In this document: piece after piece, positions 8,257 through 62,973 of the stretch
How the letters are laid out: each line of letters begins with the position of its first letter
How positions within the stretch are numbered: the first letter of the stretch is position 1
Assembly (NCBI GenBank): GCA_965225995.1
Contig: CBDDCF010000030.1
Coordinates: 36,101-100,100, forward strand
Direction of reading: 5' to 3'
DNA: 64,000 nt
From: Acidobacteriota bacterium
GTDB lineage: Bacteria; Acidobacteriota; UBA6911; RPQK01; CBDDCF01
Program-made: the position numbers and the translations under genes
The notes under the pieces: generated by a model
The model's database searches: none
What the model was told of the DNA's origin: nothing
Seen by the model: the letters and a program-made list of their open reading frames with translations, nothing else

Positions 8257-9021
8257 TCACTTCGTCTCCTTTTGGGTTCTCTGCTTGGCGGCTTCCATCC
8301 GGTAGCTGGTCACGTTCAACTCCAGGATCACGCTATGGTGAACCAGGCGGTCGATTGCCGCGGCCGTGGTCAGGGGATCCTTGAAGATCCTCTCCCAGTC
8401 CGAGAAGACCAGGTTGCTGGTCAGCAGAATCGAGCGACGCTCGTAGCGATGGGAGAGCAACGTGAAGAGAATCTCCATCTCGTCGCGATTCTGCTGTACA
8501 TACCCGATGTCGTCGATGATCAGGGCCTCGAACCGATCCAGCTTCTTGAGTTCCCTCTCCAGAGTTAGCTCGAGCTTGGCTCTCAGTAACCGCTGCACCA
8601 GCAGCGCACAGGTCGAGAACAGCACCCGCCGGTCTCGCAGGATCAACTCCTGCCCCAAAGCACAAACAAGATGCGTTTTCCCGCTTCCTGGATTACCGAA
8701 CACAAGTAGATTTTCGGCTCGGTCCAGGAAGTCTCCCTCCACCAATCCTGACAACTGCCGGTCCACACTCTGCGGGAGTCGTGAGCGATCCAATGAAGTC
8801 AGGCTCTTGTCCCAGGGAAGTTTCGAGGTCCGTCGTAGTTTCTGGATCCGTCGTTCCCGTCGATCCGCGACTTCCAGCTCCGACAGAGCCAGCAGGTACT
8901 GCGGATAAGACCAGCTCTCTGTGGTCGCCAAAGCGGCCTGCGAGCCGTGATGCTCGCGGAAGGGCGGCAGGCGAAGTTCGACCAAACACTCTTTGAGTCT
9001 TTGCAGGTTGCCTCCGCTCAT
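8257..9021 (-). CDS. istB: IS21-family helper ATPase IstB
   Basis: Walker A GNPGSGKTHL, Walker B LIIDDIGY, IstB_IS21 family length and architecture. Confidence 0.9.
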   Translation of the reverse strand: MSGGNLQRLKECLVELRLPPFREHHGSQAALATTESWSYPQYLLALSELEVADRRERRIQKLRRTSKLPWDKSLTSLDRSRLPQSVDRQLSGLVEGDFLDRAENLLVFGNPGSGKTHLVCALGQELILRDRRVLFSTCALLVQRLLRAKLELTLERELKKLDRFEALIIDDIGYVQQNRDEMEILFTLLSHRYERRSILLTSNLVFSDWERIFKDPLTTAAAIDRLVHHSVILELNVTSYRMEAAKQRTQKETK

Positions 9022-40342: not shown

Positions 40343-41620
40343 TCAAGAAGACAGCCGATCGAGCAAAGTCGCTGTCAGTGACTCCCGACTGACTGGGATC
40401 TGCTCTCCATCCAGCATCTGTTTGAGAACCATTTCTCCCGACTGCAGCTCATTCTCGCCGAGCACGCAAGTGAAGCGCGCCCCAACTCGATTGGCCCACC
40501 TCAATTGAGCCTTGAGCGATCGGGCCGCGAAGTCGACTTCGACCCGGATGCCGTGCTCGCGTAAGGACTTCTGCAGAGACAGTGCCGCTCGAAAAGTCTC
40601 TTCGTCGAAATAGATCAAGATCAGATCTGGAACCGGTAGCTGGAAAGGCGACTGAATACTGTCGCGCCCGGAGAGTAACAGCACGAGTCTCTCCAATCCC
40701 ATGGCAAAGCCGAATCCTCGAGTCGCAGTTCCCCCCAAGATTTCTGCCAGGCCATCGTACCGACCCCCTCCAACCAGAGCATTCTGGGTGGGTCCCAACT
40801 GGTCGCTGATGATTTCGAAAGTAGTTCGAACGTAATAGTCGAGCCCCCGAACCAGTCGGGGCTCCTCCGCATACTCGAGCCCGTGCAAATCGAGGTAGCT
40901 CTTGAAGCCGGCATAATGCGTTTGGCATTCCTCACACCAGTGCTGGTCGATGGTTGGCAGCTCGGCAATCCAGGGCTGACAACTGGGAACTTTGCAGTCG
41001 AAAATGCGGAGCGGGTTGCTTTCCAGGCGCCGATGGCACTGTCCGCATAGCTGGTCCAGTCACCAGAAGCGCCTGGCGCCGCAGTAGAGCGACAAAAGCT
41101 GGCCGGCAGTTTGCGCAGCCCACCGAATTCACGAGCAGACGGTACTCCCGCAACCCCATCCGGCTCAAAAAGCCAGTCAGCATTTCGAGGACCTCGGCTT
41201 CGACAGCTGGGATGGTCCCGTTCCCAGGACTTCGGCCCCCAGTTGGTGAAACTGGCGGTAGCGACCCTTCTGGGGACGTTCGCGTCGAAACATTGGACCC
41301 ATGTAGTAGAGTTTGATAGTCGAGGAGAGGGCCTGCAGATTGTGCTCCAGATAGGAGCGAACTACTGGCGCAGTGCCCTCTGGTCTCAGGCTCATGCGGT
41401 TTCCGCGAGTATCTTCGAGAGTGAACATCTCCTTTTGGACGATGTCGGTCTCGCCTCCGATACTGCGTGTGAAGAGTTCGGTCTCTTCCAATACAGGGGT
41501 CCGAATCTCGTCAAATCCATAGCGCGGAAAGAGTGCACGGACAGTGGATTCGATCCGCTGCCACAGCTCGACTGAGCCGGGCAGAATGTCGTGTGTCCCC
41601 CGGATTGATCTGACGTCCAT
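40343..41620 (-). pseudogene. hisS: Histidyl-tRNA synthetase, interrupted by at least two frameshifts (pieces 41620->~41180, 41183->40932, 40888->40343)
   Basis: N-terminal MDVRSIRGTHDILP...LRPEGTAPVVRSY...FRRERPQKGRYRQFHQLGAEVLG. Middle LSRMGLREYRLLVNSVGC in a second frame. C-terminal GLDYYVRTTFE...GGGRYDGL and the anticodon-binding domain in a third frame. Confidence 0.8.
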
Positions 41621-41655
41621 GATGATCTTCCCCGAAAAGCATGCATTATAGCTTG

Positions 41656-41760
41656 TAACTCCCAACTCCCAACTCCCAACCGGAGGGGGGCCGTATCCAA
41701 GTCGGCGGTACCCATGCCCGCAGACTTATTTGTGAGTTGGTAGTTGGGACTTGGGAGTTA
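41656..41760. repeat. Large hairpin built from (CTCCCAA)n arms with a ~50-nt loop, between comE-like and hisS
   Basis: Left arm TAACTCCCAACTCCCAACTCCCAAC; right arm GTGAGTTGGTAGTTGGGACTTGGGAGTTA. Related to the 22490-22580 hairpin. Confidence 0.5.
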
Positions 41761-42349
41761 TTCCCAATGTCTGACGCAGTTGGTGGGCGGATTCGGCTAT
41801 TGAATCCCGCAGGAAAGGCTCAGTAACGTCCGGGCCACGTCGGATTGGGCCCTCCTTTCCCGGCCGGATGTGGGCCTGGGCGAAACGGGGACCGGTAAGG
41901 TGGATCAGGGCTTCGATGTCCGCCTCGACCTGCTCTGCGCGATGCCACTCGAAAGTGTGGGGGATACCGGCGGCTCGAGCCATCGCAGCCAGTTGGAGTT
42001 TTCCGATGGCCGGAACAGCCTGATTGCCGGTGATCTCGTAGACTCCATTCTGCAGCACCACCAGGATCAGATTGGCCAGCTCGGCTTCCGAGATAGTGGC
42101 CAGAGTGCCCAGGCTCATGAGCATACTGCCGTCACCGTTCAAGCAGAGGATCTGCCGTTCCGGTCGAGCCAGAGCCAGCCCCAGAGCCAGGTCTGCGGTA
42201 TGTCCCATGGCGCTATCAGCCGACACGAAGTCGAGCTCGGGACGAGCCGACAGCCAGCCCCAGGTTCGCACCGCTCCCATGGTTGTCACCACCACTTCAT
42301 CGGTCCGGCTCCGACCCAGGATTGTGAGGAACTCCTCTCTTTCCATCAT
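41726..42349 (-). CDS. TPP-dependent decarboxylase beta subunit (ComE-like: sulfopyruvate/phosphonopyruvate decarboxylase C-terminal TPP-binding domain)
   Basis: GDGSMLMSLGTLATI TPP-binding motif. Start overlaps the stop of the upstream alpha-subunit gene. Confidence 0.55.
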   Translation of the reverse strand: MMEREEFLTILGRSRTDEVVVTTMGAVRTWGWLSARPELDFVSADSAMGHTADLALGLALARPERQILCLNGDGSMLMSLGTLATISEAELANLILVVLQNGVYEITGNQAVPAIGKLQLAAMARAAGIPHTFEWHRAEQVEADIEALIHLTGPRFAQAHIRPGKEGPIRRGPDVTEPFLRDSIAESAHQLRQTLGITPKSQLPTHK

Positions 42350-42897
42350 AGCGAGGTTGCCGCGATTCCAGCCTCGACCAGAACAGCCGCGGGATGTTGG
42401 TGAAGCTGAGCCCACTGCGAGGCCTTCTCAATGCAGCCTATATCGTGGTCTTGACGCAGGCTCCAAAAAGGGATTCCCCATCCTCGCAATGTGGGCTCTG
42501 TCAACAGAGATACCGAGTCGATTCCGGGGTCGGAGAGATCATCCCGACGGGGAGGGTCCGAGAGGCTTACGCGCCGTGAGGCTGGGAGATTCGCATAGCC
42601 CCGGCAGGTGACGAGGCTGAGTACCGGAATCCTCATTCGAACCAGTGTTCCGCGTAAACTGTCGCCACTCTCCAACAGCCCTGTGTTCTGAATCAACACG
42701 CTGGGAGTCTTGCCCCCGATCCATAGGCCAGCCGCTATCGCGAAAGCTTCCCCTTCGCGGGTTACGGTCAGGTTCTGAATCGCAGCTTGTAGATTCAACT
42801 CGCTGTGCAGAGCCGCCGAAGCATTGTCCGGAATCCCCACCACATGAGTCACTCTCAAACTGCGGAGCGCTCCGAGTACGAGCTTGGCAGTGAGCAT
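42346..42897 (-). CDS. TPP-dependent decarboxylase alpha subunit (ComD-like N-terminal pyrimidine-binding domain)
   Basis: TPP_enzyme_N-like domain: VTHVVGIPDNASAAL...EGEAFAIAAGLWIGGKTPSVLIQNTG. Confidence 0.55.
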   Translation of the reverse strand: MLTAKLVLGALRSLRVTHVVGIPDNASAALHSELNLQAAIQNLTVTREGEAFAIAAGLWIGGKTPSVLIQNTGLLESGDSLRGTLVRMRIPVLSLVTCRGYANLPASRRVSLSDPPRRDDLSDPGIDSVSLLTEPTLRGWGIPFWSLRQDHDIGCIEKASQWAQLHQHPAAVLVEAGIAATSL

Positions 42898-43203
42898 GGA
42901 TTAATATCTCCGTCTCTTCAATTGGCCCTGGGGGGAGAGCGACGCGGTTCCGTTGATCCGCTGTTCGTCGCTCCCCCGGGAGTGTAAACTGTCTCTCTTC
43001 CGAGAGCCAGGTAGCCCGGTGGAACTGACCTGATTTTGCGCCCCCGGCGCCTTGCAGCAAACTTTCAAACAAGTGCTTGAGAGTTGTGCCATGAAGTTCA
43101 CTGGGAATCGATAACCGGACCCTGGCGTTGCAGTGCTGGCTCTCAGAGCGCCAAGCGGCAGCGCGAGCGCGGGAAAGCGTGTGCCGGACATGAGCGTCCC
43201 GGC

Positions 43204-45180
43204 TCATCTTTGTAACGACATTAGTCGTGTGAAGATGGCCCGGACTGTCGGCGTCAGTCGACCTCGATTGTAGGCATCTCCACATTGGCGGATCGCTTCG
43301 GCGGCCGTTGGGTAGGGGTGAATCACACTGGCCAGCTTCCCGAGCCCCATTCCGGCCTGGATGGCGACACTGATCTCACTAATCAGCTCTCCGGCGTGGG
43401 GTCCGACGACGGTGGCTCCCAGGATCTCGTCCTTCCCTTTTCTCACATGGATCTTGACGAACCCGGAAGTCTCGCCGTCCACGATTGAACGATCCACCTC
43501 CGAGAAATCGTGGCGGAAGGTTTGGTACTCGACTCCCTGCTCCTCCAGATCCCTTTCGTAGAGTCCCACGTGAGCTACTTCGGGATCGGTATAGGTCGAC
43601 CAGGGGATGAGCAGGGAGGAAAACTTGTCCCGACCCAGGAAGAGAGCATTCCGGATCACCAGCCGGGCCATGAAATCGGCCACATGGGTGAACTGGAACT
43701 GGGTGGCGACATCGCCGGCCGAATAGACGTTGGGATTGCTCGTCTGAAGCCGATCATTGACCTTGATCCCGCTCCGGGTATCAAAATCGATTCCGGCTTC
43801 CTGCAGCCCCAGATTATCGACAGTCGGCTTTCGGCCAGCCGCAACCAACAGCTGATCGAATTCGAGCGACCGCTGCAGCCCGGCTTGTTCGAAGATCACT
43901 CGAATGGGTCCATCCAGGCCCTGGCTCTCAATCGAGGAGTAGCTCACTGAATATTCAAAGATCACACCGTCTTCGCGCAGACTGGCAGCCACAACGTCGG
44001 CAGCCTCCGGGTCCTCCTTGGGAAGGATTCCTGCCCGACGAGAGAATACCGTCACGGCCGATCCCAGGCGAGAGAAAGCTTGTGCCAGCTCGAGCCCGAT
44101 TGGGCCAGCGCCGATCACCCCCAGGCGGGGAGGCAGTTGGGTCAGGTTGAAGACCGACGCATTGGTTAAGAACGGGGATTCCCGAAGTCCCGGAATGGAG
44201 GGAATCGCCGCCGTTCCTCCTGTGGCGATCACGGCCTTGGAAAAACGCAGGGTCTCGCCGTTGACCCGGACCGAATCAGGGCCGCTAAAAGTGCCTCTTC
44301 CCAGAAAGACGTCGACCCCGAGTCTGGCAAATCGCTCGGCCGAGTCATGCGGAGCGATGTCGGCTCGAATCCGACGGAGTCGTTCCATCACGGCCGGGAA
44401 GTCGACCGATACCTGTCCATCGATTCGGATCCCGAATTCTGCGGCCCGTTTTACAGCCGCTGCCGCTCGCGCACATCGAAGCAAGGCCTTGGAGGGCACG
44501 CATCCTACGGTGAGACAATCCCCACCCAAGAGATGAGACTCGATCAGAGCGACCCGGGCTCCCAGGCCGGCTGCCGCAGCTGCCGACACCAGTCCACCCG
44601 TTCCCCCTCCAAGCACGACCAGATTGTACCGTTCCGCAGGGTTAGGGGCCTCCCACCGAGCGGGATGAGCGTGATCGAGAAGCCGGGTATTGTGATCGTC
44701 GAGGGGAGCGATGCCAATCTCTTCCAAATCTTCGGCGGGGAACTCTCCCAGCCTGTCATCCCGCTCCGGCAGTCGCGGTTGCAGCGAATCAGCAGTCGGA
44801 CCGGTCGGGCCCAGAAAATCGGCCCAACTAACCTTGCTTCCATCCGATCTTGTAGCCACCTGACCGTGTTCTTCGTCTTTGGCAAAGCGGTAGAATAAAT
44901 AGTCATCCCGGAAGGGATGAGCCTGCTGAACATGATGGAAGATACCGGCACTGAGCAGAATGTTTCCGATCCGCAAAGCGTCTGCGATATCGCTGGCGAA
45001 ACCTTCACGAATCAGCACCTGAACGGCCTCGCTTCCCACGAAGCATTTGAGGTAGGACTTGGCCGGAAATCCGTGCTTTCGGTCCGCAATATCGAATAAC
45101 TGATGAGTGCGTTGGGCCAGAGCCTCTAGTTCGTTTTTCGAAAATTGGGCCTCTTCCCCTGGGCGATCCTGCTGTGTCAT
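43204..45180 (-). CDS. Pyridine nucleotide-disulfide oxidoreductase (class I flavoprotein disulfide reductase) with N-terminal DEP-like domain
   Basis: Redox-active GGDCLTVGCVPSK, two FAD/NAD Rossmann GxGxxG motifs, C-terminal dimerisation domain. The N-terminal ~190 aa contain FPAKSYLKCFVGSEAVQVLIREGF...LRIGNILLSAGIFHHVQQAHPFRDDYLFYRF, which matches the DEP-domain consensus. Confidence 0.65.
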   Translation of the reverse strand: MTQQDRPGEEAQFSKNELEALAQRTHQLFDIADRKHGFPAKSYLKCFVGSEAVQVLIREGFASDIADALRIGNILLSAGIFHHVQQAHPFRDDYLFYRFAKDEEHGQVATRSDGSKVSWADFLGPTGPTADSLQPRLPERDDRLGEFPAEDLEEIGIAPLDDHNTRLLDHAHPARWEAPNPAERYNLVVLGGGTGGLVSAAAAAGLGARVALIESHLLGGDCLTVGCVPSKALLRCARAAAAVKRAAEFGIRIDGQVSVDFPAVMERLRRIRADIAPHDSAERFARLGVDVFLGRGTFSGPDSVRVNGETLRFSKAVIATGGTAAIPSIPGLRESPFLTNASVFNLTQLPPRLGVIGAGPIGLELAQAFSRLGSAVTVFSRRAGILPKEDPEAADVVAASLREDGVIFEYSVSYSSIESQGLDGPIRVIFEQAGLQRSLEFDQLLVAAGRKPTVDNLGLQEAGIDFDTRSGIKVNDRLQTSNPNVYSAGDVATQFQFTHVADFMARLVIRNALFLGRDKFSSLLIPWSTYTDPEVAHVGLYERDLEEQGVEYQTFRHDFSEVDRSIVDGETSGFVKIHVRKGKDEILGATVVGPHAGELISEISVAIQAGMGLGKLASVIHPYPTAAEAIRQCGDAYNRGRLTPTVRAIFTRLMSLQR

Positions 45181-45423
45181 AAGTGAACTCCTTATTCGCG
45201 ATGAGTCGGAACCCGCAGTGTAACCTTACAGAACGAACCCCCGATTTCGCCGGCCCATCCCCCTGCCGCGCACACTCCTAGGCACCTACCCACGTTCTTT
45301 GTGGCCTCCTCGTCGGTTTGAGGCAGGATTATCGGAGCGCCGTGTCCTCAGCCCGGGGCCTGCCCTCCGAAGCCTTGGCGAAGGGCGGCGGGGAGAATTG
45401 ATCGGCAGTGAAACGTAGTTCTC

Positions 45424-45440
45424 CTATTGAACCCCAATAG
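45424..45440 (+). promoter_or_regulatory. Palindrome CTATTGAACCCCAATAG ~40 bp upstream of padR; candidate PadR operator
   Basis: Perfect 6-bp inverted arms CTATTG/CAATAG. A second half-site-like TCCTATTGG lies at 45457-45465. Confidence 0.3.
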
Positions 45441-45478
45441 AACTTTTCGCGTATCCTCCTATTGGTGGGTAATATGAA

Positions 45479-45823
45479 ATGAAGAAGCAACGCTCGGAAC
45501 TCCTCCAGGGAACCCTCACCCTCTTAATCCTACGCACGCTGGCGCTCGGAGCTCTACATGGCTATGGGATTTCGCAGCGTCTCGGCCAGATGACTGAAGG
45601 TGTCTTCAGCGTAAATGTGGGGACGATCTTTCCAGCCCTCCACAAGCTGGAACAAGAGGGCTATCTGAAAGGCTACTGGGGACGTACCGAAAACAATCGA
45701 CGGGCCCGTTTCTACCAACTCACCCGGCCTGGCGCGCGCCGTCTGCGTGCCGAAGAAGAGGGCTGGAAGCGAGTCACGAGTGCAATCGGCAAAGTTCTGG
45801 AAGCAACTCGGGTGATGCCCTGA
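45479..45823 (+). CDS. PadR-family transcriptional regulator
   Basis: Winged HTH: LTLLILRTLALGALHGYGISQRL ... LEQEGYL. Confidence 0.8.
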   Translation: MKKQRSELLQGTLTLLILRTLALGALHGYGISQRLGQMTEGVFSVNVGTIFPALHKLEQEGYLKGYWGRTENNRRARFYQLTRPGARRLRAEEEGWKRVTSAIGKVLEATRVMP

Positions 45824-45835
45824 CGAGGACAAGCA

Positions 45836-48675
45836 ATGAAACTGTTTTATTGGATACGGGCTTTGGTGACTGGTTTGAGAGGGCGCAAACGGCAGGAAAG
45901 TAGTCTGAGCGACGAGTTGGAGAGCTTTCTCAATCTGGCAGTCGAAGACAAGTGTCGGCAAGGAATGACACCCCAGCAAGCGCGTCGCGAAGCGTTGATC
46001 GAATTGGGTGGCCTGGAGCCGACTAAAGAGCGAGTACGGGATGGCCGAGTTGGGGAGGGATTGGAACGGGTATGGCAGGACGTCCGCTTTGCCTCCCGGC
46101 TCCTTCGTGCACATCCTGGTTTCTCAGTGGCAGTGCTGTTGACCTTGGCTCTCGGGGTGGGGGCCAACAGCGCGATTTACAGCCTCGGGCAAGCGGTTCT
46201 CTTTCGCTCCGCACCCGTGGAGCGGCCCCAAGAACTGGTGGCCGTCTGGACCACATGCCGGCGCGGCGCGCCGCAGTGCGCCAGTTCCTACCCCGACTAC
46301 CTGGACTACCGAGAACGGTCTCCTACACTTCAGGATTTGGCGGCATATTCTTGGAAGGCGATCAGTTTGGCCTCGGAAGCGGGCAGTCGAGTGGTGACGG
46401 CTCAGCTGGACAGTGGAAATTACTTTTCCATGCTCGGAGTGGGCACCCTTCTGGGTCGCTCTTTGTTGGAGTCGGATGATCGGTTGGGGGGCGCGCCGGT
46501 GGCTGTCCTGGGTCACCGCTTCTGGGTCTCTCATTTCGCCTCTGATCCTCAGATCATCGGAACAGTTATTCGCCTCAATGGTGAGCCTTTCCAGGTTGTA
46601 GGGGTCACTCCAGCAGGCTTCGACGGCTTGCACCTGGGAGCCGGTCCCGACCTGCATATTCCCCTTCAAGCGCTCCCCCTGTTGAGCGTAAATGCCGAAC
46701 GGGCTCGGCAGCGATTTTCGACTCGCGGCTCGCGCTGGATTCCTCAGTTGGTTGGCCGGCGTCTGCCGGGAACGACGTTGGAAGCGGTTCGCCAAGAGAT
46801 GGCCGCCATTTCGGAGCAGTTGGCCAAGGAGGATCCCGAGTCCCGTGGACCGCGCAAGATAACTATCGAGCCTGCAGCTCAGTTCATTCTGCCGGTGTCG
46901 CGAGCCCAGGACGTGGTGGCCTTCGTTTTTCTTCTGGGAGGAGTGGTTGGGCTGACCTTGCTCCTGGCTTGCGCCAATCTCTCGAATCTCTTGCGGGCTC
47001 GAGGACTGGCGCGGCAACACGAAATGGGGATTCGGGTGGCTATCGGAGCGAGTCGAGGGCGCCTCGTGAGACAGCAGATCACCGAGACTCTGGTTCTAGC
47101 ACTGTTGGGAGGAGGCCTCGGACTCCTGGTGGCCCGACTCATGCTGGCCGGGATCGCTTCGTTTGAATTGCCGGGCGGAATCCTGATCGAATCGGTTCAT
47201 CCGGAGCTCGACTGGGGAGTCCTCCTCGCGACTTTCGGTGTCGCCTTGTTGGCAGGATTGTTGGCGGGCTTCTTACCCGCCCTCCAGGGCACCCATTTCC
47301 GACTCGCAAAAATACTGGTTCAGGGGGCCGGCCGGGTCGACTCGACTCCTGCTGGCCATCACCTGCGCAGGGCTCTGGTCGGAATTCAGTTGGCCCTCTC
47401 GTTGGTCTTGCTGGTAGGGACAGGGCTCTTCTTGAAATCGCTGCAAAACGGATTCGCGACCGATCTCGGCTTCCGGAGCGAAGGCCTGGTCACCGCTCGG
47501 GTCGATCTCTCTTTGCTCCACTACTCCGAGGCAGAGGGGCGCCGCCTGTTGGAACAACTCATCGAGCGCTTGGAGGCCTATCCTGGAGTTGAGTCGGCGG
47601 GAGTCGGAAGCCGGCTTCCACTTGGGACAGGAGGATCAGCAACATTTCTCTCTCGGGTGGAGGGCTATACTCCCGCACCCGACGAGGAGCTCCGCATCAA
47701 TATCGAGTTTTTCCGGCCAGCTTTGCGCGCACCCTCGGACTTCAGCTAGTTGCCGGTGAAGCTCTGACAGCGAATGGCGGAGTGGACCATATCTTGATCA
47801 ATCGAGTGATGGCCGAGCGGTGGTGGTCGGGGAGAAATCCGGTGGGCGGACAAGTGCAGATGGGAGAGCGGACATTCCAGGTCACGGGAGTGCTGGAAGA
47901 TGTCCACTGGAGGGCTCAACTAGAGGAGCCATCGCTGCCTTTTGTTTTCTTTCCACTGGAGACCTCACCCTCCCGAGCGGAGGATAGCCCGATGGCGGTC
48001 TTCGCCAGAACCAGTGGGGATCCAAGCGCTCTCATGACCTTTCTCCGCGAGCAGGTGCATCAGCTCGACAGAAATCTCAGTCCCACGGCGATGACTGCCA
48101 TGGACGACCGCCTGGCCCACCTTTTGATGCCGCAGAGAATGGCAGCTTTCCTGTTTACTTGCTTTGGATCCCTGGGGCTTCTGCTGGCGGCCGTCGGAGT
48201 CTACGGCATCACCAGCTTCAGCGTCGGTCGACGCTCTCGTGAAATCGGCCTTCTCATCGCGGTGGGAGCCCGGCGCTGGCAGATCCTGTGGTTGATGGCG
48301 CGGCAATTAGCCCTACCCGTCATCCTGGGACTGGGTCTGGGAATCCTCCTCACCGGGCTACTTTCGGGGGCGGCCGAGAGTTTCCTGCTGGGTCATTCTG
48401 CAATTGATGGCGGAGCGATCCTGCTCAGCTTGGGTGCCCTCCTGATTGTCGTCTTCGGTGCCTGCCTGATCCCGGCCTCCCGTGCCTCCCGACTCGATCC
48501 CTGCAGGCGCTGCGGACCGAATGATGCTTGTCGGAAAGCAGCTAGATTTCATTGCGCCTCAGACCGACGAGGCGCCCGGAGAAGCTTGGCGGAGCCCTTC
48601 GGAGTGTGCGCGGCCAGACCGCCGCCTTTCCCTCGAAAGCGGTACTTGGACTGCCCATCCGGCTTGCCGATTTGA
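45836..48675 (+). CDS. ADOP-family ABC transporter permease (duplicated FtsX/MacB-like), with a -1 frameshift at a T5 run near 47705 (ORFs 45836..47749 and 47782..48675)
   Basis: N-terminal MacB-like periplasmic domain and two FtsX 4-TM blocks. Sequence continuity (...EFF | RTLGLQLVAGEALT...) is recovered by shifting frame at gagtttttccgg. Confidence 0.7.
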
Positions 48676-49156
48676 GGGCTGAAGGCTCTGTCATGGGAGG
48701 CTGTTGCCGAACTCGGGGTGAGCTTGTGGTGGTTTTCCGGCGCAACGGGTCTTGGGAATCGAGGGATGTGAACTACCGACGGTTTCAGGCCGGATACCAA
48801 AGCGGCAGCTCAATTTCATAGAGAATCGTCTAGTTTTCGTCAGCGATTCCGCTGCAGCACCAAATCGGCTCGCCGATTTGGAGTGCGCCTAGGAGCCTGT
48901 CCGAGTATTGGGGTGCGGTTGCGAACAGGGGTCTTGTGAGTCGAGCCGCTTTGGTATCCGGCTGAGCGTCGTGATCTTGAGTAGTCCAATAGTCCGGCAA
49001 TAGATGCCATGGCTACAGCGCCAAGGTACCGGCGGCGCGAGAATGTACAAGTCCAGCTGCTGTCGGCTGCCCAACCGGCTTCATCTGTCGCTGTTAACTA
49101 TAGTGTCTATCGATATAGCTTAGTAATCCATAGTCTTGCGTTCTGGAGAGCTTTCT

Positions 49157-49537
49157 ATGAATTCGCCAAGTCGAGATCCTGGAGACCTGATTCCACTGAC
49201 TCCTCTGGTTTTCCATGTCCTGCTTTCGCTGGTTGCTCAGCAAAGCCACGGCTACGCGATTATTCAGGATGTGCGAGAGCGGTCGGGCGGCACGGTCCGG
49301 ATTGGCTCGGGAAGCCTTTACGCGGCCATCCGTCGACTCCTGCAATCGGGTTTGGTGACAGAGGTTGACGAGCGTCCCGCTCCGGAAGCCGATGATGAGC
49401 GCCGCCGCTACTATGCCATGACTCGGCTCGGTCGCCGCGTGGTTCGGGCTGAAACCCAGCGGATGGCGGAAGCGGTGCGTATGGCCGAAGGGCTGCTCCT
49501 GGCCCGCCCGCCGGCAGGGGAGACTTCCGGAGAATGA
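49157..49537 (+). CDS. PadR-family transcriptional regulator (ATG with GGAG RBS; alternative TTG at 49136)
   Basis: LTPLVFHVLLSLVAQQSHGYAIIQDV...LLQSGLV. Confidence 0.7.
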   Translation: MNSPSRDPGDLIPLTPLVFHVLLSLVAQQSHGYAIIQDVRERSGGTVRIGSGSLYAAIRRLLQSGLVTEVDERPAPEADDERRRYYAMTRLGRRVVRAETQRMAEAVRMAEGLLLARPPAGETSGE

Positions 49538-52236
49538 ACTTTCAACCGACCCACCGGAGCCGGATCGAACGGCTGCACCATCGGCTCCTTCAGATACTCT
49601 ATCCGATCCTGTTCCGGCGGGAGTTCGGGGATCAGATCGAAGCTACCTTTCGCGACCTCTGCCGCCAGGCCAAAAGAGAGGTACGCCCTGGATCCTTGCT
49701 CCATGTCTGGATAGGAGAACTCTTCTACCTGGTCACGACAGCAATCTTTGTCAGGTTTGAAGAAGTCAAACGCAGTTTCCCGGCGTCTCCGGCGCCGGAA
49801 CTGTCAGAGAGGAACAAGATGCTCGATTCCATCCTTCAAGATTTCCGTTACAGTCTCCGGTCGATCCTCCGCCAACCCTTCTTCTCCTTGCTCGTGATTG
49901 CCACGCTGGGATTGGGTGTAGGAGCCAACAGTGCCATCTTCAGCGTCGTTAGTGGGACTCTGCTGACACCTCTTCCTTATCCGGGATCGGAGCGGATCGT
50001 GACCCTTTGGGAGGATTTTTCGGCCCAGGGCGGCCCCTCCCAGGAATGGATCGAAGTGCCTAATTTCTTCGAGTGGAAAGAGCATAGCCAATCCTTTGAA
50101 ACGATGTCGGCTTTTGGTTTCAATCAGGTCAATCTGATGTTGGGTGACGAGGCCGAAACGGTTACGGGCGCAGTAGTTTCCCATGATTTCTTCCGAGGTT
50201 TTGGCGTGGAGCCGGCACTGGGTCGCGAGTTTACGTCCGAGGAAGATAGTCCCGGTGCTGAACCGGTGGCGATTCTCTCCCACCGCCTCTGGCAAGAGCG
50301 ATTGGGTGCTGATCCTGAGATTCTGGGACGTTCCATGATGATCAATGATCAGTCGGCCACCGTAATAGGGGTCCTTCCCAAGGGTTTTCAGACTCCTCTC
50401 GCCAACCAGGTAGCGGTTTGGCAACCCGTGAGAATCAGCCCTACTTCGCACGGGCGGAGCAACTTCTTCTTGCAAGGCATCGGCCGGCTGCGAGAAGGCG
50501 TGTCGCTGGAGCGGGTGCGGGTCGAGATGAACTCAATCATGCAGCGGATCGGTCAGGAGTTTCCCAAAGATGCCGGTGTCACGATGCAGGTCATTCCGCT
50601 GTTGGATCTGATCATGCAGCCGGTCAGGACTTCGCTCTGGGCGCTGATGGCTGCCGTTTTTCTGGTTCTGCTTATCGCTTGTGCCAACATTGCCAACTTG
50701 GTGCTGAGCCGGACTGTAATCCGCCAGCGGGAGATGGCGGTGAGAGCTGCGATTGGAGCTGGACGTCAGCGTCTAGTTCGTCAACTCCTGACGGAGAGCA
50801 TGCTCCTGGCCTTGTTTGGTGGAGGGCTTGGGTTGGGGTTGGGCGTGTTGGGATGTAACCTCCTGATCTCGCTGGCACCGCCCAACGTACCCAGACTGGA
50901 TGAAGTCGGTTTGAACACCAGCGTGTTGCTTTTTACGCTAGGTGTCAGTCTGCTCAGCGCTGTGATCTTCGGGCTGGCACCGGCCCTACATGGTTCGCAT
51001 TCGGACCTCAATGCGGCCCTCAATGCCGGGGGGAGGGAAGCCCGAGGGCCGACCGCCGGGAGTCGGTTGCGGTCGGCTTTGATCGTCGCCGAAGTGGCGT
51101 TAGTACTCACCCTCTTGGTGGGATCCGGCTTGCTGCTCCGCAGTTTCGCGCGCCTGCAGCGAGTGGATCCCGGCTTCCGGCCGGAGGGGCTCATCTCTAC
51201 CGGCTTGCGCTTGTCTCCCACCCGCTTTCCCAAGACTGAGAACCTCCGCGGATTCGTGCAGGACCTGGTCTCGCGAATCGAAGGCAATGTCGGGATCGAG
51301 GCGGTCAGTGGAATCTCGGTTCTCCCTCTGGGGGGAAGCGACTCGGACACCGGTTTCTCCATCGAAGGGAGACCCGCTCCGACTCGTCCCCAGGATCAAC
51401 CTGTCGTCTGGTTTCGTCGCACGCTCCCCAAGTACTTCTCTACCATGGGCATTCCTCTACTCCAAGGCAGAGACTTTCGGGACTCCGATCACGCCGATGC
51501 TCCTGGTGTAGTGATGATTAGCGAAGTGGCTGCCGAACGCTATTGGCCGGAGGAAAGTGCTCTCGGAAAAAGGGTCAGATTTGGCTCGAACGGGGCCTGG
51601 AGCACGATCGTCGGAATCGTCCCGGGAATCCGCCATCGAGCCCTGAATCAGATTCCGCGTCCCGAACTTTATTTCCCCTATGCACAACGCCCCGGACGAT
51701 TCGTCAATTTAATTGCGAAGACAGAGTTGCCTACTGCTACAGCTGCCGGGCTGATTCGAGCCGGTATCCGCGAACTGGCCAGCGGGCTCCCGATGCTGGC
51801 CGTCTCGCGCCTCGAGAACCTGGTTGAGGCCTCAATCGGACAGCAACGCTTCATCATGAAAATGACCGGTGGCTGCGCAACACTGGCAGTGGTACTGGCG
51901 GCGGTGGGCATTTACGGAGTCATTTCCTATTCGGTGAGCCAACGGACTTACGAGATTGGCTTGCGCATGGCGCTGGGTGCCCAGCGCTCGACTGTTCTAG
52001 CCATCATTTTGCGCCAAGGATTCCTGCTGACCGTGATCGGAATTGCGATCGGAATTGGGCTCTCCCTGTGGGCAACGAGGTTCATTTCATCGCTGCTCTT
52101 TAATACCAGTTCCACAGATCTTCTGACATTTCTGATGACGGCGACTCTGCTGGGCATTGTCGGCCTGGTCGCTTGTCTGGTGCCCGCCTACCGGGCCACT
52201 CGGATCGATCCCCTGAACGCGCTCCGCTGTGAATAA
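49534..52236 (+). CDS. ADOP-family ABC transporter permease (intact, 900 aa)
   Basis: Same architecture as 45836..48675. Start overlaps the PadR stop. Confidence 0.8.
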   Translation: MNFQPTHRSRIERLHHRLLQILYPILFRREFGDQIEATFRDLCRQAKREVRPGSLLHVWIGELFYLVTTAIFVRFEEVKRSFPASPAPELSERNKMLDSILQDFRYSLRSILRQPFFSLLVIATLGLGVGANSAIFSVVSGTLLTPLPYPGSERIVTLWEDFSAQGGPSQEWIEVPNFFEWKEHSQSFETMSAFGFNQVNLMLGDEAETVTGAVVSHDFFRGFGVEPALGREFTSEEDSPGAEPVAILSHRLWQERLGADPEILGRSMMINDQSATVIGVLPKGFQTPLANQVAVWQPVRISPTSHGRSNFFLQGIGRLREGVSLERVRVEMNSIMQRIGQEFPKDAGVTMQVIPLLDLIMQPVRTSLWALMAAVFLVLLIACANIANLVLSRTVIRQREMAVRAAIGAGRQRLVRQLLTESMLLALFGGGLGLGLGVLGCNLLISLAPPNVPRLDEVGLNTSVLLFTLGVSLLSAVIFGLAPALHGSHSDLNAALNAGGREARGPTAGSRLRSALIVAEVALVLTLLVGSGLLLRSFARLQRVDPGFRPEGLISTGLRLSPTRFPKTENLRGFVQDLVSRIEGNVGIEAVSGISVLPLGGSDSDTGFSIEGRPAPTRPQDQPVVWFRRTLPKYFSTMGIPLLQGRDFRDSDHADAPGVVMISEVAAERYWPEESALGKRVRFGSNGAWSTIVGIVPGIRHRALNQIPRPELYFPYAQRPGRFVNLIAKTELPTATAAGLIRAGIRELASGLPMLAVSRLENLVEASIGQQRFIMKMTGGCATLAVVLAAVGIYGVISYSVSQRTYEIGLRMALGAQRSTVLAIILRQGFLLTVIGIAIGIGLSLWATRFISSLLFNTSSTDLLTFLMTATLLGIVGLVACLVPAYRATRIDPLNALRCE

Positions 52237-58597: not shown

Positions 58598-60252
58598 CTA
58601 GCCCGGATTATGCAAGAACCGTAGGCCGGAGTTGAAAAGAGAGTCGAAAGTGGCCTAAATCGGGAGATCGAAGGTGCGACAGGCGGATTTTCGAGGGATC
58701 TCTGTGGACGAGCCGTGTGGAGTAGGTGGGGGAGTGAATTTCAGACGGAGTTGGGCCTGAATGAGTGTCCTAAACGATCATTCGGGAGCTAGGAGAGGCT
58801 AGCTGGAGTTAAGGCGATTCAAGACGAGGAGGAAAAGGGCCTGCTCCGGAAAGCCGGAGGAAAGATGGGCCCAGATGCGTCGAGTGGTTTGTCGAACCCG
58901 CGCCCCAATTTTGAGGACCCGGCGACGCAAAGTTTCGATTTCGAGTTTCTGCCAGGGGGTTCCATACAGATAATCGCGGAGTCGGACGAACATCTGGTAA
59001 GCCAGCCCATGCAGGAGAAGTCGAAACTGGTTGGCCAGGAATCGATGACAGCTCAGCCGATCCATACTCAGATGGTTCTTAAAAGCCTTGATGAAGTTCT
59101 CCGACTGTCCTCGATCGGTGTAGTGATCATAAAGGGACTGGGAAGAGAGATCGTCTCGGTTGGTGACCACAAAGCGACGATTGATCCCCCGATGGTCGAC
59201 TTCCACTTTGACGATGACGCGACGGAATCGATCCCAGCTGCTGGCTCGATAAAGAAACTCGTCAAACTGACGCTGTTTTTCCTCGAACTCGTCGAACCTG
59301 AGTCGAGTCGACTCGAGCATCGGCTCGACCATCCGTTGCCGGCGGGGGTTCCGGCTTAACCCAATGACATATTGGAGTTTGTTCTCTTCAGATTCACAGA
59401 ACTCGTAGAGCCGAGGCGTGGCAAAGCCGCTGTCGGCCCGGATCTCAATTTGAAGTTCCTTGCCAACTTCTCGTCGAATGGCTTTCACGATTCGTTTCAG
59501 AATAGGAACGATGTGAGAGGCAGCCCCCTTGTTTCCAGGCCTCAATACGACAGTGACCAGGTCCCCCGTAACGGCATCGAAGATCAGCCAAGGATGCAGA
59601 ATGTGGTTTCGGTAATAGCCGTGGTAAAAAGAGAATTCCTGTTGGCCGTGAGTGTGGTCGTCAGTACTGTCCAGGTCCAAGATGACCGGGTCGGGGCGTC
59701 TCTTCTTCAGCGAGCGGACATAACGCTGTAGGAACCCCCGGCTCAGACGCATGAGATCCTTCTTGCTGACAGAGTTTTCCAAACGGGAAAAAGTTGCCTG
59801 GGTGGCCAAGTCAGGATCGCTCTCAGGTAACTGATCACAGACGGTCTTGAGCATGGGATCCGAGCGCAGCGTGTCCGCGTCATTGCAGTCTTCGTACCCG
59901 GCAACGATCTGAAAGACTCGTTGTCGGATCAGCTGTAACTGCTCATGACGAACGTAGCGTTGGTCCCGGCTATCCGCAATACACGAACTGAAGTCCTCGC
60001 AGAGTCGATCTTGCCGATCCAGGGAACCAAACAACAGCCATCCGGCATCGGAAGTCAGGTTCCCACCATCAAAACGAGCCGTGATTTGTGTGTGCGAGTG
60101 AAATGCCAGGGTGGTCTGACAGACTGGGTTTGACATTGCCGTAGTTCTCCGATAAGGATTTGTTTAATAAACCCTTTTATATCAGAGAGATACGGCATTT
60201 TTTCTGGTCCCCAATCCACTCGAATCCGGATCTCTTGCATAATCCGGGCTAG
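58598..60252 (-). mobile_element. IS1380/IS4-like insertion sequence (1655 bp) with perfect 20-bp terminal inverted repeats
   Basis: CTAGCCCGGATTATGCAAGA at 58598-58617 and its exact reverse complement at 60233-60252. If CTAG is the target duplication, the TIR is the 16 bp beginning with CC. Confidence 0.75.
58799..60136 (-). CDS. DDE transposase (IS1380/IS4-like, DDE_Tnp_1)
   Basis: 445 aa; DLDSTDDHTHG and DSGF acidic motifs. Confidence 0.75.
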   Translation of the reverse strand: MSNPVCQTTLAFHSHTQITARFDGGNLTSDAGWLLFGSLDRQDRLCEDFSSCIADSRDQRYVRHEQLQLIRQRVFQIVAGYEDCNDADTLRSDPMLKTVCDQLPESDPDLATQATFSRLENSVSKKDLMRLSRGFLQRYVRSLKKRRPDPVILDLDSTDDHTHGQQEFSFYHGYYRNHILHPWLIFDAVTGDLVTVVLRPGNKGAASHIVPILKRIVKAIRREVGKELQIEIRADSGFATPRLYEFCESEENKLQYVIGLSRNPRRQRMVEPMLESTRLRFDEFEEKQRQFDEFLYRASSWDRFRRVIVKVEVDHRGINRRFVVTNRDDLSSQSLYDHYTDRGQSENFIKAFKNHLSMDRLSCHRFLANQFRLLLHGLAYQMFVRLRDYLYGTPWQKLEIETLRRRVLKIGARVRQTTRRIWAHLSSGFPEQALFLLVLNRLNSS

Positions 60253-60706: not shown

Positions 60707-61480
60707 TCATTTCTTTTCTCCTCGCTTCTTGGTCGACTTCTCCCGTTGTTGACGTTCGTAGAGGCGATAGCTCTTGCCTCGAATGAAGGTCACCTCCGAA
60801 ACGTGTAGAAAACGATCCAGCAGCGCAGAGGTGGCCGCCGTGTCTCCTCCCAGCATCGCTCCCCAGTCCTCGAGTGGTCGGTTCGAACTGATAATGGTCG
60901 AGGTCTTCTGGTAGCGGCGATGCAGGATCTCCAGCAGATCTTCAGCCGCCGAGTCGGGCACTCTCCGAAGTCCCAGATCCTCGATGATCAGCAGCGGGAT
61001 CCGGGTCATCTCTGCAATGTAGGGTCGGCGCATCCCGGTGGCAGTGGCTTCAGCGATGTCCTCGAGCAGATCGAAAGCCGACTTGTACTGTACCCGGTGA
61101 CCCGCTTCCACAGCCTTGATTGCCACCGTGATGATCAGATGTGTTTTGCCGACTCCCGCCTGACCGATGACCAACCAGCCGCGACACTGTTCGATGAATC
61201 GGCAAGTGGCCAGATCAAAGATCTGCTGCCGATTGATCGAGGTGTTGAAAGAGAACCTGAAGTCCTCCAAGAGTTTGCGTTCCGGGAACTGGGCCTGGCG
61301 GAGACATCGCTCCAGCAAACGGTCGCGCCGGCGGGTGAGTTCGTCGTCGATGAGCAGCTCAAAGAACTCCTGATGAGAGAGACGGCCCTGGATGGCTTGT
61401 TGCAGCCGTACGTCAAAGACCTGGGCCAGGCCCGAGAGCCTGAGGTGGCGAAGTTTCCGTTCCAGTTCCAATGAGATCAT
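60707..61480 (-). CDS. istB: IS21-family helper ATPase IstB
   Basis: Walker A GQAGVGKTHL, Walker B LLIIEDLG. Confidence 0.9.
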   Translation of the reverse strand: MISLELERKLRHLRLSGLAQVFDVRLQQAIQGRLSHQEFFELLIDDELTRRRDRLLERCLRQAQFPERKLLEDFRFSFNTSINRQQIFDLATCRFIEQCRGWLVIGQAGVGKTHLIITVAIKAVEAGHRVQYKSAFDLLEDIAEATATGMRRPYIAEMTRIPLLIIEDLGLRRVPDSAAEDLLEILHRRYQKTSTIISSNRPLEDWGAMLGGDTAATSALLDRFLHVSEVTFIRGKSYRLYERQQREKSTKKRGEKK

Positions 61481-62973
61481 TCCGGGTCTCCTGAGCGGGG
61501 AGTGAGTTGGTACTCAGACAGCGGCCGAATCAACTCGTGGTCGGAGGTGAATAGAGAGCGTTGCGGCACGTCTAGTCGCTTGCATAAAGCCACCAGGGTC
61601 CGATAGCGGAAGGCATCGTGAGAGAGAGCCTTGGCACAGGCTTCATTGACGACCGTGGCCGGGTAGCGTCGGGTCAAAGAGATCATGCCTCTCAGGAGCC
61701 GGTAGGCCAACACGTCGCGCACCTCCAGGGCTCGCACTGCCCAGCGGTGAGCATCAGAGCCAATCCTGCGGGCTTGCCCGAGCAGCTGACTCTCAGTTCG
61801 ATAATGAGCGTAGCGTTTGCGTTCCGGAAGATGTGTGGGTTCGGTCTGGAACTGGCCGGGTTTCCGCTTGGGATGCAGGACGACTTGCTGCTCTCGGAAA
61901 AAGACTCGGACGATCCGGTCATCCCAGTGCACAGCCACTTCACAGCCAAGCAGATGATTGGGTACCGAGTAGAAGGCTCGATCGACTTCGATGTGGCCAT
62001 CCACGGAGACCGTGCGACGGCCGGTACGGAAGAAACTGAAGCGGGAGTCGGGTAGAGGTCGAAGACCCTTCTGTTCCTCCAGGAATCGGGGCCAGACCTG
62101 CTGTTTGGTGGTGCCGTGGATGCGCTGTCGGGCGACCCGCTCGTTCCAGTTCCGTAGATGCTCATTCTGCTCGGCCAGACTCTCGAACCGTCTGCCCTTC
62201 AGGGCACTGGACTTTGTATATCCGATCGTCCTTTCGACTTTTCCATTCTCATTTGGAGAGCCAGGATGGATGGGAATGATGGCAAAACTATAGTGACGGC
62301 CCAGCGCACTGAAAACGGCGTTGATCTCGGGATCGACAAAGCAGGCTCGCGTGACTCCGGCCTTCAGGTTATCCAAGCGAACCACGTCTACCGAGCCACC
62401 AAACCAGTGGAAGGCATTCTCGACACAACGGACGAAGGTCTCCAGATCCTGCCGCCAGACGACCTCCTCATACGAGTGGCGGGAATAACACAGCACTGCC
62501 TTGAACAGGTGGGGGCGACGGTACCGGCCCGATTCGGTTTGTGTCAGAGCTGCTTTGCCAAAGTCCACCTGCATGTCCCGACCGGGTGGAGTTTCCACCC
62601 GAGCGAAGACTCGTGGACTCTCGGCTTTGAGCTTTCTGCAAAACCGTTTGACGGAGTTATACGCTCCATCGAAGCCATGCTCCAAAACCAGGTCTTGCCA
62701 GATCCGCTTGGCATGCAACCCCAGCTCAAGCTTCTTCTGGATTTCCTCCCGAAAAGGCTCACACGAGCTGCGCCGACCCGGGGGCCGCTTTGGCCGCTTT
62801 TGCTCACCCGAGCCGGGGGCCACTTTGGCCGGTTTTGAATCTCGGGCCGGATCATGTCGGGCTACAGTCTCTCGACGAACTCCTGTTTCTCGCTCGATCC
62901 GCCGATACGACCAGCCCAGCTTCAATAGCGCCACAACCGTTTGTTTCTTCTCCATTTTCAGTACATTGACCAT
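61477..62973 (-). CDS. istA: IS21-family transposase IstA
   Basis: HTH + DDE integrase core, 498 aa, 4-bp overlap with istB. Confidence 0.9.
   Translation of the reverse strand: MVNVLKMEKKQTVVALLKLGWSYRRIERETGVRRETVARHDPARDSKPAKVAPGSGEQKRPKRPPGRRSSCEPFREEIQKKLELGLHAKRIWQDLVLEHGFDGAYNSVKRFCRKLKAESPRVFARVETPPGRDMQVDFGKAALTQTESGRYRRPHLFKAVLCYSRHSYEEVVWRQDLETFVRCVENAFHWFGGSVDVVRLDNLKAGVTRACFVDPEINAVFSALGRHYSFAIIPIHPGSPNENGKVERTIGYTKSSALKGRRFESLAEQNEHLRNWNERVARQRIHGTTKQQVWPRFLEEQKGLRPLPDSRFSFFRTGRRTVSVDGHIEVDRAFYSVPNHLLGCEVAVHWDDRIVRVFFREQQVVLHPKRKPGQFQTEPTHLPERKRYAHYRTESQLLGQARRIGSDAHRWAVRALEVRDVLAYRLLRGMISLTRRYPATVVNEACAKALSHDAFRYRTLVALCKRLDVPQRSLFTSDHELIRPLSEYQLTPRSGDPE

Follow-up and report, generated by a model that had tools for sequence, protein, structure and literature searches.

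The stretch of DNA analyzed here (the window; 64,000 nucleotides of contig CBDDCF010000030.1 from an Acidobacteriota bacterium) carries on its minus strand a gene for a 658-residue flavoprotein disulfide reductase, in which an N-terminal DEP domain is joined through a conserved linker to a MerA-like oxidoreductase core. Comparative analysis shows this gene to be one more member of a widespread family that is catalogued but experimentally unstudied, and whose genes normally stand alone. We lean modestly toward an explanation in which the protein is a DEP reductase of this known family that works with NADPH and is held at the membrane, and in which the thiamine pyrophosphate (TPP) enzyme genes lying next to it are an incidental neighbor.

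Domain structure and spread of the DEP-fused reductase

The reductase gene and its parts are located in the window as follows.

43204 to 45180, minus strand: gene for the DEP-fused, MerA-like flavoprotein disulfide reductase (open reading frame [ORF] of 658 residues; Pfam DEP plus Pyr_redox_2, Pyr_redox, and Pyr_redox_dim)
44884 to 45090, minus strand: DEP domain, residues 31 to 99 (PF00610; phmmer matches to solved DEP domains)
44722 to 44883, minus strand: linker, residues 100 to 153, present only in the DEP-fused subfamily (alignments; without counterpart in DEP-less relatives)
43210 to 44721, minus strand: FAD/NAD(P)H oxidoreductase core of the NF004991 type, residues 154 to 657 (NCBIfam NF004991)
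44500 to 44517, minus strand: redox-active disulfide CLTVGC, C222 and C227 (direct reading of the sequence; invariant in all alignments)
43306 to 43320, minus strand: HPYPT active-site loop with H621 and Y623 (codons cac ccc tac cca acg; HMMER alignment to 5x1y)
43282 to 43284, minus strand: Cys633, within RQCGD (alignments)

The N-terminal DEP domain had been proposed in a preliminary description of the locus, and it is confirmed by the Pfam profile PF00610, which matches residues 31 to 99 over profile positions 4 to 72 of 72 (61.6 bits against a gathering threshold of 32.7; E = 6.6e-17). Compared with PDB sequences by phmmer, residues 1 to 183 retrieve DEP1 of DEPTOR (7dkl; E = 5e-19), P-Rex1 (6e-17), Epac2 (3.5e-9), and GPR155/LYCHOS (2e-8), with further matches to P-Rex2, Iml1, and RGS7. 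Judged by these profile and sequence matches, which lie far beyond chance, the DEP assignment can be regarded as secure; an N-domain of the HMA type, the alternative that the preliminary description had kept in view, was not detected by Pfam. In an alignment of 49 members of the fusion family, DEP residues R34, G37, P39, Y43, F47, G49, and F96 to F99, linker residues W119, D121, F122, Q134, P138, R140, and D141, and the C-terminal tail show little or no variation, and the DEP domain contains no conserved metal-binding Cys pair. An AlphaFold2 model of the full protein, built from an input alignment of 49 sequences that were all 65 to 85% identical, was discarded (mean predicted local distance difference test [pLDDT] score of 58, with values of 31 to 63 in the DEP region and below 50 in the linker and FAD regions).

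The complete class I disulfide oxidoreductase core recognized in the preliminary description stands as well. All of its elements are present: the FAD-binding GGGTGG (residues 191 to 196), the redox disulfide C222/C227 within the motif GGDCLTVGCVPSK, the NAD(P)H-binding GAGPIG (residues 357 to 362), and a C-terminal dimerization domain. Pfam assigns residues 185 to 631 to Pyr_redox_2 (PF07992, 192 bits), Pyr_redox (PF00070, 73 bits), and Pyr_redox_dim (PF02852, 109 bits). The core, whose N-terminal extension reads PLDxHNxxLLDxxHPxxWxxPxP, passes the NCBIfam model NF004991 “FAD-containing oxidoreductase” (PRK06370.1-3) with 729 bits against a cutoff of 620, residues 154 to 657 covering model positions 5 to 507 of 509. 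Cutoffs were not reached for the MerA model TIGR02053, the second-best NCBIfam match (384.4 bits against an equivalog cutoff of 454.45), for lipoamide dehydrogenase TIGR01350 (357 against 408.8), or for the glutathione reductase models (212 to 268 bits against 480 to 606); the mycothione reductase, RclA, and HOSCN reductase models also stayed below theirs, with scores lower than those of MerA and lipoamide dehydrogenase.

The best solved relative is MerA (5x1y; E = 1.8e-75, about 36% identity), with 1zk7 matched as well, and relatives carry the annotation “mercuric reductase”; the protein could therefore be read as a true mercuric reductase in which the DEP domain has taken the place of the NmerA metal-binding domain. 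Tn501 MerA is defined by a C-terminal vicinal pair, C558/C559, together with the active-site tyrosines Y194 and Y535. Tyr623 of the invariant I-H-P-Y-P-T loop aligns with the tyrosine of the MerA PY(L)T motif (Tyr535), a point in favor of that reading; in lipoamide dehydrogenase and glutathione reductase, whose HPT..E loop carries a catalytic His-Glu dyad, the His sits where this Tyr is found, so that the H-P-Y-P-T loop does not reproduce the dyad, and H621, Y623, P624, and T625 are invariant in DEP-fused, DEP-less, and TVP38-fused relatives alike. The tyrosine of the MerA KY motif (Tn501 Y194 position), however, is aligned by HMMER against 5x1y with an invariant serine, Ser280, and the C terminus of the reductase (...RQCGDAYNRGRLTPTVRAIFTRLMSLQR, ending in LMSLQR) has the single Cys633 and no vicinal Cys pair. 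Because the C-terminal pair is absent, Ser280 occupies the KY position, and the TIGR02053 score falls short, we describe the protein as MerA-like, not as MerA.

The genomic context points the same way. In a neighborhood survey, ORFs of 84 loci were clustered, and counts were taken over 82 or 67 loci; no mer gene was found among the recurrent neighbor clusters identified by Pfam and NCBIfam, with no direct search for merR, merT, or merP made. Nor were these three genes noticed in the window or in 80 loci, again without a dedicated search, the clusters consisting of VTT, DUF547, pentose phosphate, SDR, and glycoside hydrolase genes. The lack of an HMA domain and of a conserved Cys pair in the DEP domain also speaks against a mercuric reductase. 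On the other side, the cyanobacterial MerA-like protein Slr1849, which may or may not belong near the present clade, is reported to be mercury inducible (PMC6741143). With both sides considered, a true mercuric reductase is improbable.

Two further features of the core may be noted. Conservation of Cys633 reaches at least 90%, but only within the DEP-fused subfamily; in DEP-less relatives, KKAAD or KYVAG replaces RQCGD. The strand following the second Rossmann motif ends in VTVFSRR (family consensus VTVFSRS), with a nearly invariant R381 and no acidic residue; such an ending suggests a preference for NADPH.

The preliminary description had taken the fusion of a DEP domain to a redox enzyme for a rare event, whereas it characterizes a large and tightly conserved bacterial family. 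A protein search returned 7924 matches; the best 120 clusters at 90% identity are all about 660 residues long and align over the full query at 65 to 85% identity, and every one of the 120 carries PF00610 plus the disulfide oxidoreductase domains. Among their names are “FAD-containing oxidoreductase” (Desulfobacterales, Thermodesulfobacteriota), “Mercuric ion reductase” (Olavius symbiont Delta 3), and “dihydrolipoamide dehydrogenase (E3)”. When GTDB was scanned with a single genome for each species, 407 relatives came up, of which the best 80 loci were examined; at least 75 of these 80 match from residues 1 to 29 on, DEP domain included, at 60 to 68% identity. The fusion occurs in Desulfobacterota, Acidobacteriota, Verrucomicrobiota, Planctomycetota, Latescibacterota, “Candidatus Entotheonella,” and Gamma- and Betaproteobacteria, at least seven phyla in all, and its cultured carriers include Desulfobacter curvatus DSM 3379, Desulfosarcina cetonica JCM 12296, and Desulfosediminicola flagellatus IMCC35005. 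A protein identical to the window reductase is present in public assemblies.

An exhaustive search with residues 1 to 148 yielded 1997 representatives at 50% identity, among which the fusion family makes up very few clusters (P0004 and the divergent P0253); the top DEP scorers are multi-DEP repeat proteins of 5 to 7 units, and the stramenopile alga Chrysoparadoxa contributes at least one of these proteins. P0253 (626 residues, from a Logan contig of 2385 nucleotides) is 43% identical and keeps the order DEP, linker, core, and P0242 (366 residues) is an equally divergent homolog. The sequences of both break into intron-like junk (for instance, after KFKFT), so that P0253 is probably eukaryotic, which suggests that the DEP-linker-reductase fusion may exist in eukaryotes too. 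In the library searched, no paper was found on a fusion of DEP with a disulfide oxidoreductase, and none of relevance on prokaryotic DEP domains or on DUF547 together with TVP38. As one more copy of a catalogued family, the window gene is no discovery in itself; the family, with at least 60% identity across at least seven phyla, cultured carriers, and no paper found on it, deserves attention.

The adjacent TPP gene pair

Three genomes serve for comparison at this locus: L003, which is the window's own genome in public data (ENA ERZ28763718 ctg125702, a metagenome-assembled contig of 7.44 Mb); L001, the closest relative genome, whose reductase is 85% identical at the amino acid level; and L093, a sibling strain with 99.6% nucleotide identity (ENA ERZ25068854 contig_81). 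The features downstream of the reductase are the following.

42898 to 43203, minus strand: 306-nucleotide spacer between the reductase and TPP alpha
42346 to 42897, minus strand: TPP alpha subunit, 183 residues, TPP_enzyme_N (PF02776), ComD-like below cutoff
41726 to 42349, minus strand: TPP beta subunit, 207 residues from the ATG at 42349, TPP_enzyme_C (PF02775)
41653 to 43197: 1545-nucleotide extra segment holding the spacer, TPP alpha, and TPP beta (blastn block boundaries against L001)
41656 to 41680 and 41736 to 41760: arms of a 25-nucleotide inverted repeat, 92% complementary, with 55 nucleotides between the arms

The reductase and the two TPP genes form three codirectional minus-strand ORFs (43204 to 45180, 42346 to 42897, and 41726 to 42415); the true start of the last is the ATG at 42349, with which public gene calls concur. 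The alpha stop codon overlaps the beta start as ATGA (acc tcg cta TGA / ATG ATG gaa, in frames offset by one base), and because the 306-nucleotide spacer intervenes, the coupling is limited to the two TPP subunits and leaves the reductase out. Of the translationally coupled, ComD/ComE-like TPP genes that had been described beside the reductase, the split enzyme, its ATGA coupling, and its nearest named families (sulfopyruvate and phosphonopyruvate decarboxylases) were upheld, but the coupling does not extend to the reductase. No Rfam family and, on scanning, no promoter-like or terminator-like site was found in the spacer at 42898 to 43203; Rfam searches of the whole window and of 41500 to 45600 returned nothing meaningful, and no riboswitch precedes the TPP genes.

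Both subunits belong to the TPP superfamily (PF02776, 36 bits against 26.8 for alpha; PF02775, 61 bits against 21.9 for beta), which is marked by a diphosphate-binding GDG-X(24-27)-N motif and a catalytic Glu in the N domain; their translations contain the TPP motifs GDGSMLMSLGTLATISEAELANLILVVLQNG and TREGEAFAIAAG, with GDG-X26-N plus TREGEA. The models of named decarboxylases were missed by wide distances: alpha scores 61.6 bits with ComD TIGR03845 (cutoff 147.95) and 41.5 with phosphonopyruvate decarboxylase TIGR03297 (cutoff 312.5), and beta scores 95.4 with ComE TIGR03846 (cutoff 221.5) and 106.5 with TIGR03297 (cutoff 312.5). The best NCBIfam model for beta is PRK06163 “hypothetical protein”, at 112 bits against a cutoff of 240.

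The arrangement had been taken as a hint that the reductase and a ComDE-like decarboxylase serve one organosulfonate or phosphonate pathway, in which the reductase might act on a thiol cofactor and, as considered here, recycle it. The genes do lie next to each other on the same strand, and the decarboxylases of sulfopyruvate and phosphonopyruvate are the closest named families to the TPP pair; moreover, a PRK08322-like TPP enzyme and an aldehyde dehydrogenase are found beside the reductase in several Acidobacteriota and one Verrucomicrobiales. Comparison of genomes tells against it. The adjacency is missing in 83 of 84 loci, the 85%-identical relative included: in a tblastn search of the 84 loci with both TPP subunits, a match was obtained only in L003. 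L093, retrieved later, also has TPP genes beside its reductase, and the adjacency is confined to this species-level lineage. In L001, hisS starts 54 nucleotides past the reductase with no TPP genes between them, and blastn pairs L001 7947 to 9981 with window 45230 to 43198 and L001 9995 to 13090 with window 41652 to 38541. The nearest beta homolog is only 65% identical in a set of 5.8 billion proteins that contains the L001 proteins, so the L001 genome has no ortholog of it. By the alignment of these genomes, the TPP adjacency is shown to be a lineage-specific insertion of about 1.5 kb between the reductase and hisS, and because the adjacency stems from such an insertion, the reductase and the TPP pair are not likely to form one pathway.

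The state of the beta gene in sibling genomes bears on the same question. L093 beta (6832 to 7455, corresponding to window 41726 to 42349) contains a C-to-T nonsense change, Q110*, just ahead of the TPP-motif Asn in a gap-free alignment, along with the changes W32R, S34A, and L91P, but L093 retains an intact reductase; other sibling assemblies contain beta fragments of 54 to 160 residues alongside 658-residue reductases. Sequencing error had been suspected as the source of the broken sibling betas and was rejected for at least one of them, which arises from a clean C-to-T substitution in a gap-free alignment. The TPP cassette thus appears, from these sequences, to be decaying within the species. 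In L093, an insertion sequence (IS; DDE_Tnp_1_4) also lies between padR and the reductase.

Homologous alpha/beta pairs are plentiful (4516 matches at about 55% identity, in Gemmatimonadota, Opitutus, and Acidobacteriia) and stand alone amid unrelated genes for peptidases, ABC transporters, ADI/OTC, and PadR/ADOP. No pepM, xsc, comA/B/C, or sulfolactate gene was found within the 64-kb window, where the ORF at 61 to 1500 encodes a PEP-utilizing enzyme (PF02896/PF00391) and not PepM, and no com/xsc or pepM genes surround the homologous TPP pairs of loci L085 and L087. It is hence very improbable that the reductase acts on a thiol cofactor in a sulfonate or phosphonate pathway shared with the TPP pair: the adjacency is confined to one lineage, the 306-nucleotide spacer separates the genes, the ComD, ComE, and phosphonopyruvate decarboxylase scores lie two to three times under their cutoffs, beta is a pseudogene in a sibling that keeps the reductase, and homologous pairs are solitary. 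Comparative genomics appears largely to refute this proposal, and the sulfonate/phosphonate idea should be dropped.

Several observations on TPP genes at this and other loci may be added. In six loci (L009, L017, L077, and L083 of Acidobacteriota; L072 and L074), a 552-residue TPP enzyme and an aldehyde dehydrogenase adjoin the DEP reductase; identity of this enzyme with Xsc was rejected, as it is acetolactate synthase-like by PRK08322 (729 bits against a cutoff of 509). The second TPP enzyme beside the reductase could represent lineage synteny or a weak functional hint. A foreign composition of the TPP cassette was likewise rejected: its GC and GC3 values match those of its neighbors and hence give no compositional sign of recent transfer. 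The inverted repeat, made of GTTGGGA heptads, covers the last codons of beta, abuts a promoter-like TTGGGA-16-TATAAT of hisS, and lies on the border of the stretch that L001 lacks; a terminator and a scar left by the insertion are both possible readings.

Recurrent neighbors and a proposed role at the membrane

The commonest recurrent neighbor of the DEP-fused reductase genes is a VTT (TVP38/DedA, PF09335) membrane protein, encoded within 10 kb in 16 of 82 loci and as the immediate codirectional upstream gene in 8 of 67 (Acidobacteriota, Desulfobacterota, and Verrucomicrobiota). DUF547 (10 loci), NADP-specific glutamate dehydrogenase, SDR, and GH63/GDE-like hydrolases also recur, and in Desulfobacterota loci zwf, gnd, pgl, glk, and rpiA recur together with DUF2064/TIGR04282-like glycosyltransferases. 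In four Desulfobacterota loci (L044, 5720 to 14735; L057, 3 to 7774; L060, 5235 to 12756; and L027, 2795 to 11989), the reductase lies in a codirectional cluster with zwf, gnd, pgl, glk, rpiA, VTT, a signal-peptide DUF547 gene, a GH63/GDE-like gene, and DUF2064, possibly a module of “NADPH supply plus membrane.”

DEP-less relatives show the same association in another form. In Burkholderia glumae, a relative with 43% identity bears the annotation [quoted passage not shown] and has its VTT domain N-terminal, at the position that DEP and linker hold in the window protein. A Pseudanabaena galeata “mercuric reductase” (50% identity) is encoded on plasmid pPg_02 in the order TVP38, reductase, arsM, TVP38, arsS (L090, 4097 to 9614), and a Variovorax homolog adjoins tkt and pgm. 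On a Burkholderia glumae plasmid (L092, 3266 to 8731), TIGR04282/TIGR04283 glycosyltransferases and MTAP lie near the relative with the fused TVP38. The arsenosugar-type gene contexts of L090 and L092 hint that methylated arsenicals, or some related membrane substrate, may be what this clade acts on; for the DEP-fused genes, the arsenosugar link was set aside and kept as a lead only, arsM and arsS occurring in none of the 84 loci and TIGR04282/TIGR04283-like genes in 4. Among COG0398 DedA proteins, fusion is reported to occur most often with the combination of PF07992 and PF02852 (PMC10127716).

From these features, a mechanism can be proposed. The protein would be a homodimeric flavoprotein and would take electrons from NADPH, which is the likely donor because the strand end (S-R-R or S-R-S) has no acidic residue and because zwf, gnd, pgl, glk, and rpiA are neighbors in Desulfobacterota; the electrons would then run from NADPH through FAD and the C222-C227 disulfide to an acceptor. 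This acceptor is probably not Hg(II), since the C-terminal Cys pair is absent and Ser280 replaces the equivalent of Y194, and probably not a simple disulfide reduced by acid-base catalysis, since Tyr623 replaces the catalytic His. The DEP module would position the reductase on the inner side of the cytoplasmic membrane or bind it to a partner in that membrane, and would thus act as a soluble alternative to the N-terminal VTT fusion. Eukaryotic DEP domains are membrane- and receptor-docking modules; this property, the VTT genes that adjoin or are fused to DEP-less relatives, and the upstream VTT genes in three phyla are the grounds on which membrane placement is proposed.

Several points weigh against this proposal. 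No VTT gene lies within 10 kb in 66 of the 82 DEP-fused loci, and the window has neither VTT nor DUF547 in its 64 kb; a direct partnership of DEP and VTT is for this reason not general. The neighborhoods are variable, with about half of the immediate neighbors being singletons, and the enrichment figures are rough because the loci lack phylogenetic independence. That this DEP domain binds membranes is a prediction, to which the AlphaFold2 model, with the low mean pLDDT given above, lends no support, and the NADPH preference is read from sequence only. In addition, Cys633, confined to the subfamily, hints at a subfamily-specific chemistry that the model leaves unexplained.

Some of the same observations would fit a DEP domain that is a regulatory or protein-docking winged helix, gating the active site or delivering substrate to it like a tethered NmerA, with no membrane anchor. 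The linker (residues 100 to 153) is highly conserved, unlike a floppy tether; Cys633 co-occurs with DEP only; 66 of 82 loci are without a VTT neighbor; and DEP domains of eukaryotes can bind to proteins as well, examples being the DEPTOR-mTOR and RGS-GPCR (G protein-coupled receptor) structures. The neighborhood survey, however, revealed no conserved candidate partner gene beyond VTT or DUF547, and the AlphaFold2 model (mean pLDDT 58) is too poor to use here. We hold a docking role of this kind to be possible but rather unlikely.

The preferred explanation, an NADPH reductase held at the membrane, may be tentatively carried further, to a more specific form that we consider doubtful as a whole: DEP would be a membrane- or lipid-sensing module, interchangeable with TVP38/DedA, that recruits the NADPH reductase to the membrane, where a membrane-associated or lipid-linked acceptor, such as an arsenosugar/arsenolipid-type or DedA-flipped substrate, would be reduced with NADPH from a dedicated oxidative pentose phosphate supply. 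If true, a prokaryotic DEP domain would for the first time have a known function, and the enigmatic COG0398 DedA proteins would become open to biochemical study. The family ties together two questions, the function of bacterial DEP domains and the frequent fusion or adjacency of TVP38/DedA (COG0398) with the MerA-like clade; it is a reasonable target for biochemistry. The window itself adds little.

Other window features and comparison with known systems

Relative to L003, with which it is 99.97% identical, the window has five single-base insertions, at 41217, 41211, and 41056 in hisS and at 39719 and 39481 in aspS. They fragment both of these essential genes, which are intact (424 and 590 residues) in L003, L001, and L093, and are most likely an assembly or polishing error in this sequence version. 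An ADOP-family (MacB_PCD/FtsX) permease gene is split, here and in L003, into ORFs of 637 residues (45836 to 47749) and 297 residues (47782 to 48675) downstream of a padR_acidobact gene, and is a probable pseudogene; an intact padR-ADOP pair lies at 49136 to 52236. With 929 bits for the ADOP permease (TIGR03434, cutoff 622) and 128 for padR_acidobact (cutoff 102), the gene content by itself also suggests an acidobacterial source. The window is dense in ISs (8257 to 10505, 60707 to 62973, 19456 to 20550, and 58799 to 60136), comprising two IS21-type pairs (IstB plus Mu-transposase/rve integrase), an IS630-like DDE_3, and an IS1380-like DDE_Tnp_1_4; the region is in flux, since other IS copies occupy the equivalent positions in L001. 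A 289-residue ORF at 24308 to 25177 matches no Pfam family at an E value of 1e-5 or less.

Among known systems, the TPP pair resembles ComDE and phosphonopyruvate decarboxylase as a split TPP enzyme with coupled subunits of about 180 and 200 residues and GDG-X26-N, but the scores (62 against 148, 95 against 221, and 106 against 312 bits) and the lack of comABC or pepM neighbors, here and at homologous pairs, set the pair apart. The reductase shares with MerA (Tn501; Lysinibacillus 5x1y) the class I fold, CxxxxC, the replacement of the catalytic His by Tyr, and an accessory domain joined by a linker at the N terminus; unlike MerA, it has no C-terminal Cys pair, has Ser at the Y194 position, carries DEP instead of HMA, and was not seen in a mer operon context. 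Its DEP domain resembles those of eukaryotes over about 85 residues, including the DRK...Y.KCF.G hairpin and the C-terminal LFYRF strand, whereas eukaryotic DEP proteins differ in their GEF, RGS, or PDZ partners; the window protein has a single DEP domain on a bacterial redox enzyme.

Closer likenesses are found among the DEP-less members of the clade. Pseudanabaena galeata WP_281009808.1 and Variovorax sp. WDL1 WP_068678277.1, both of the NF004991 type, are 49 to 50% identical over the whole core and share the PxDxxNxxLLxxxHPxxWxNP extension, CxxxxC, and the IH-YPT loop, but they are only about 510 to 520 residues long, do not have DEP, linker, or Cys633, and differ in NAD(P)H-site residues. 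Burkholderia glumae WP_012732781.1, of the same disulfide oxidoreductase clade, is at 43% identity closer than MerA 5x1y (about 36%). Its add-on, which belongs to a documented fusion class (PMC10127716), joins at the same point ahead of the FAD Rossmann fold, where it is an integral-membrane VTT domain rather than the soluble DEP domain of the window protein.

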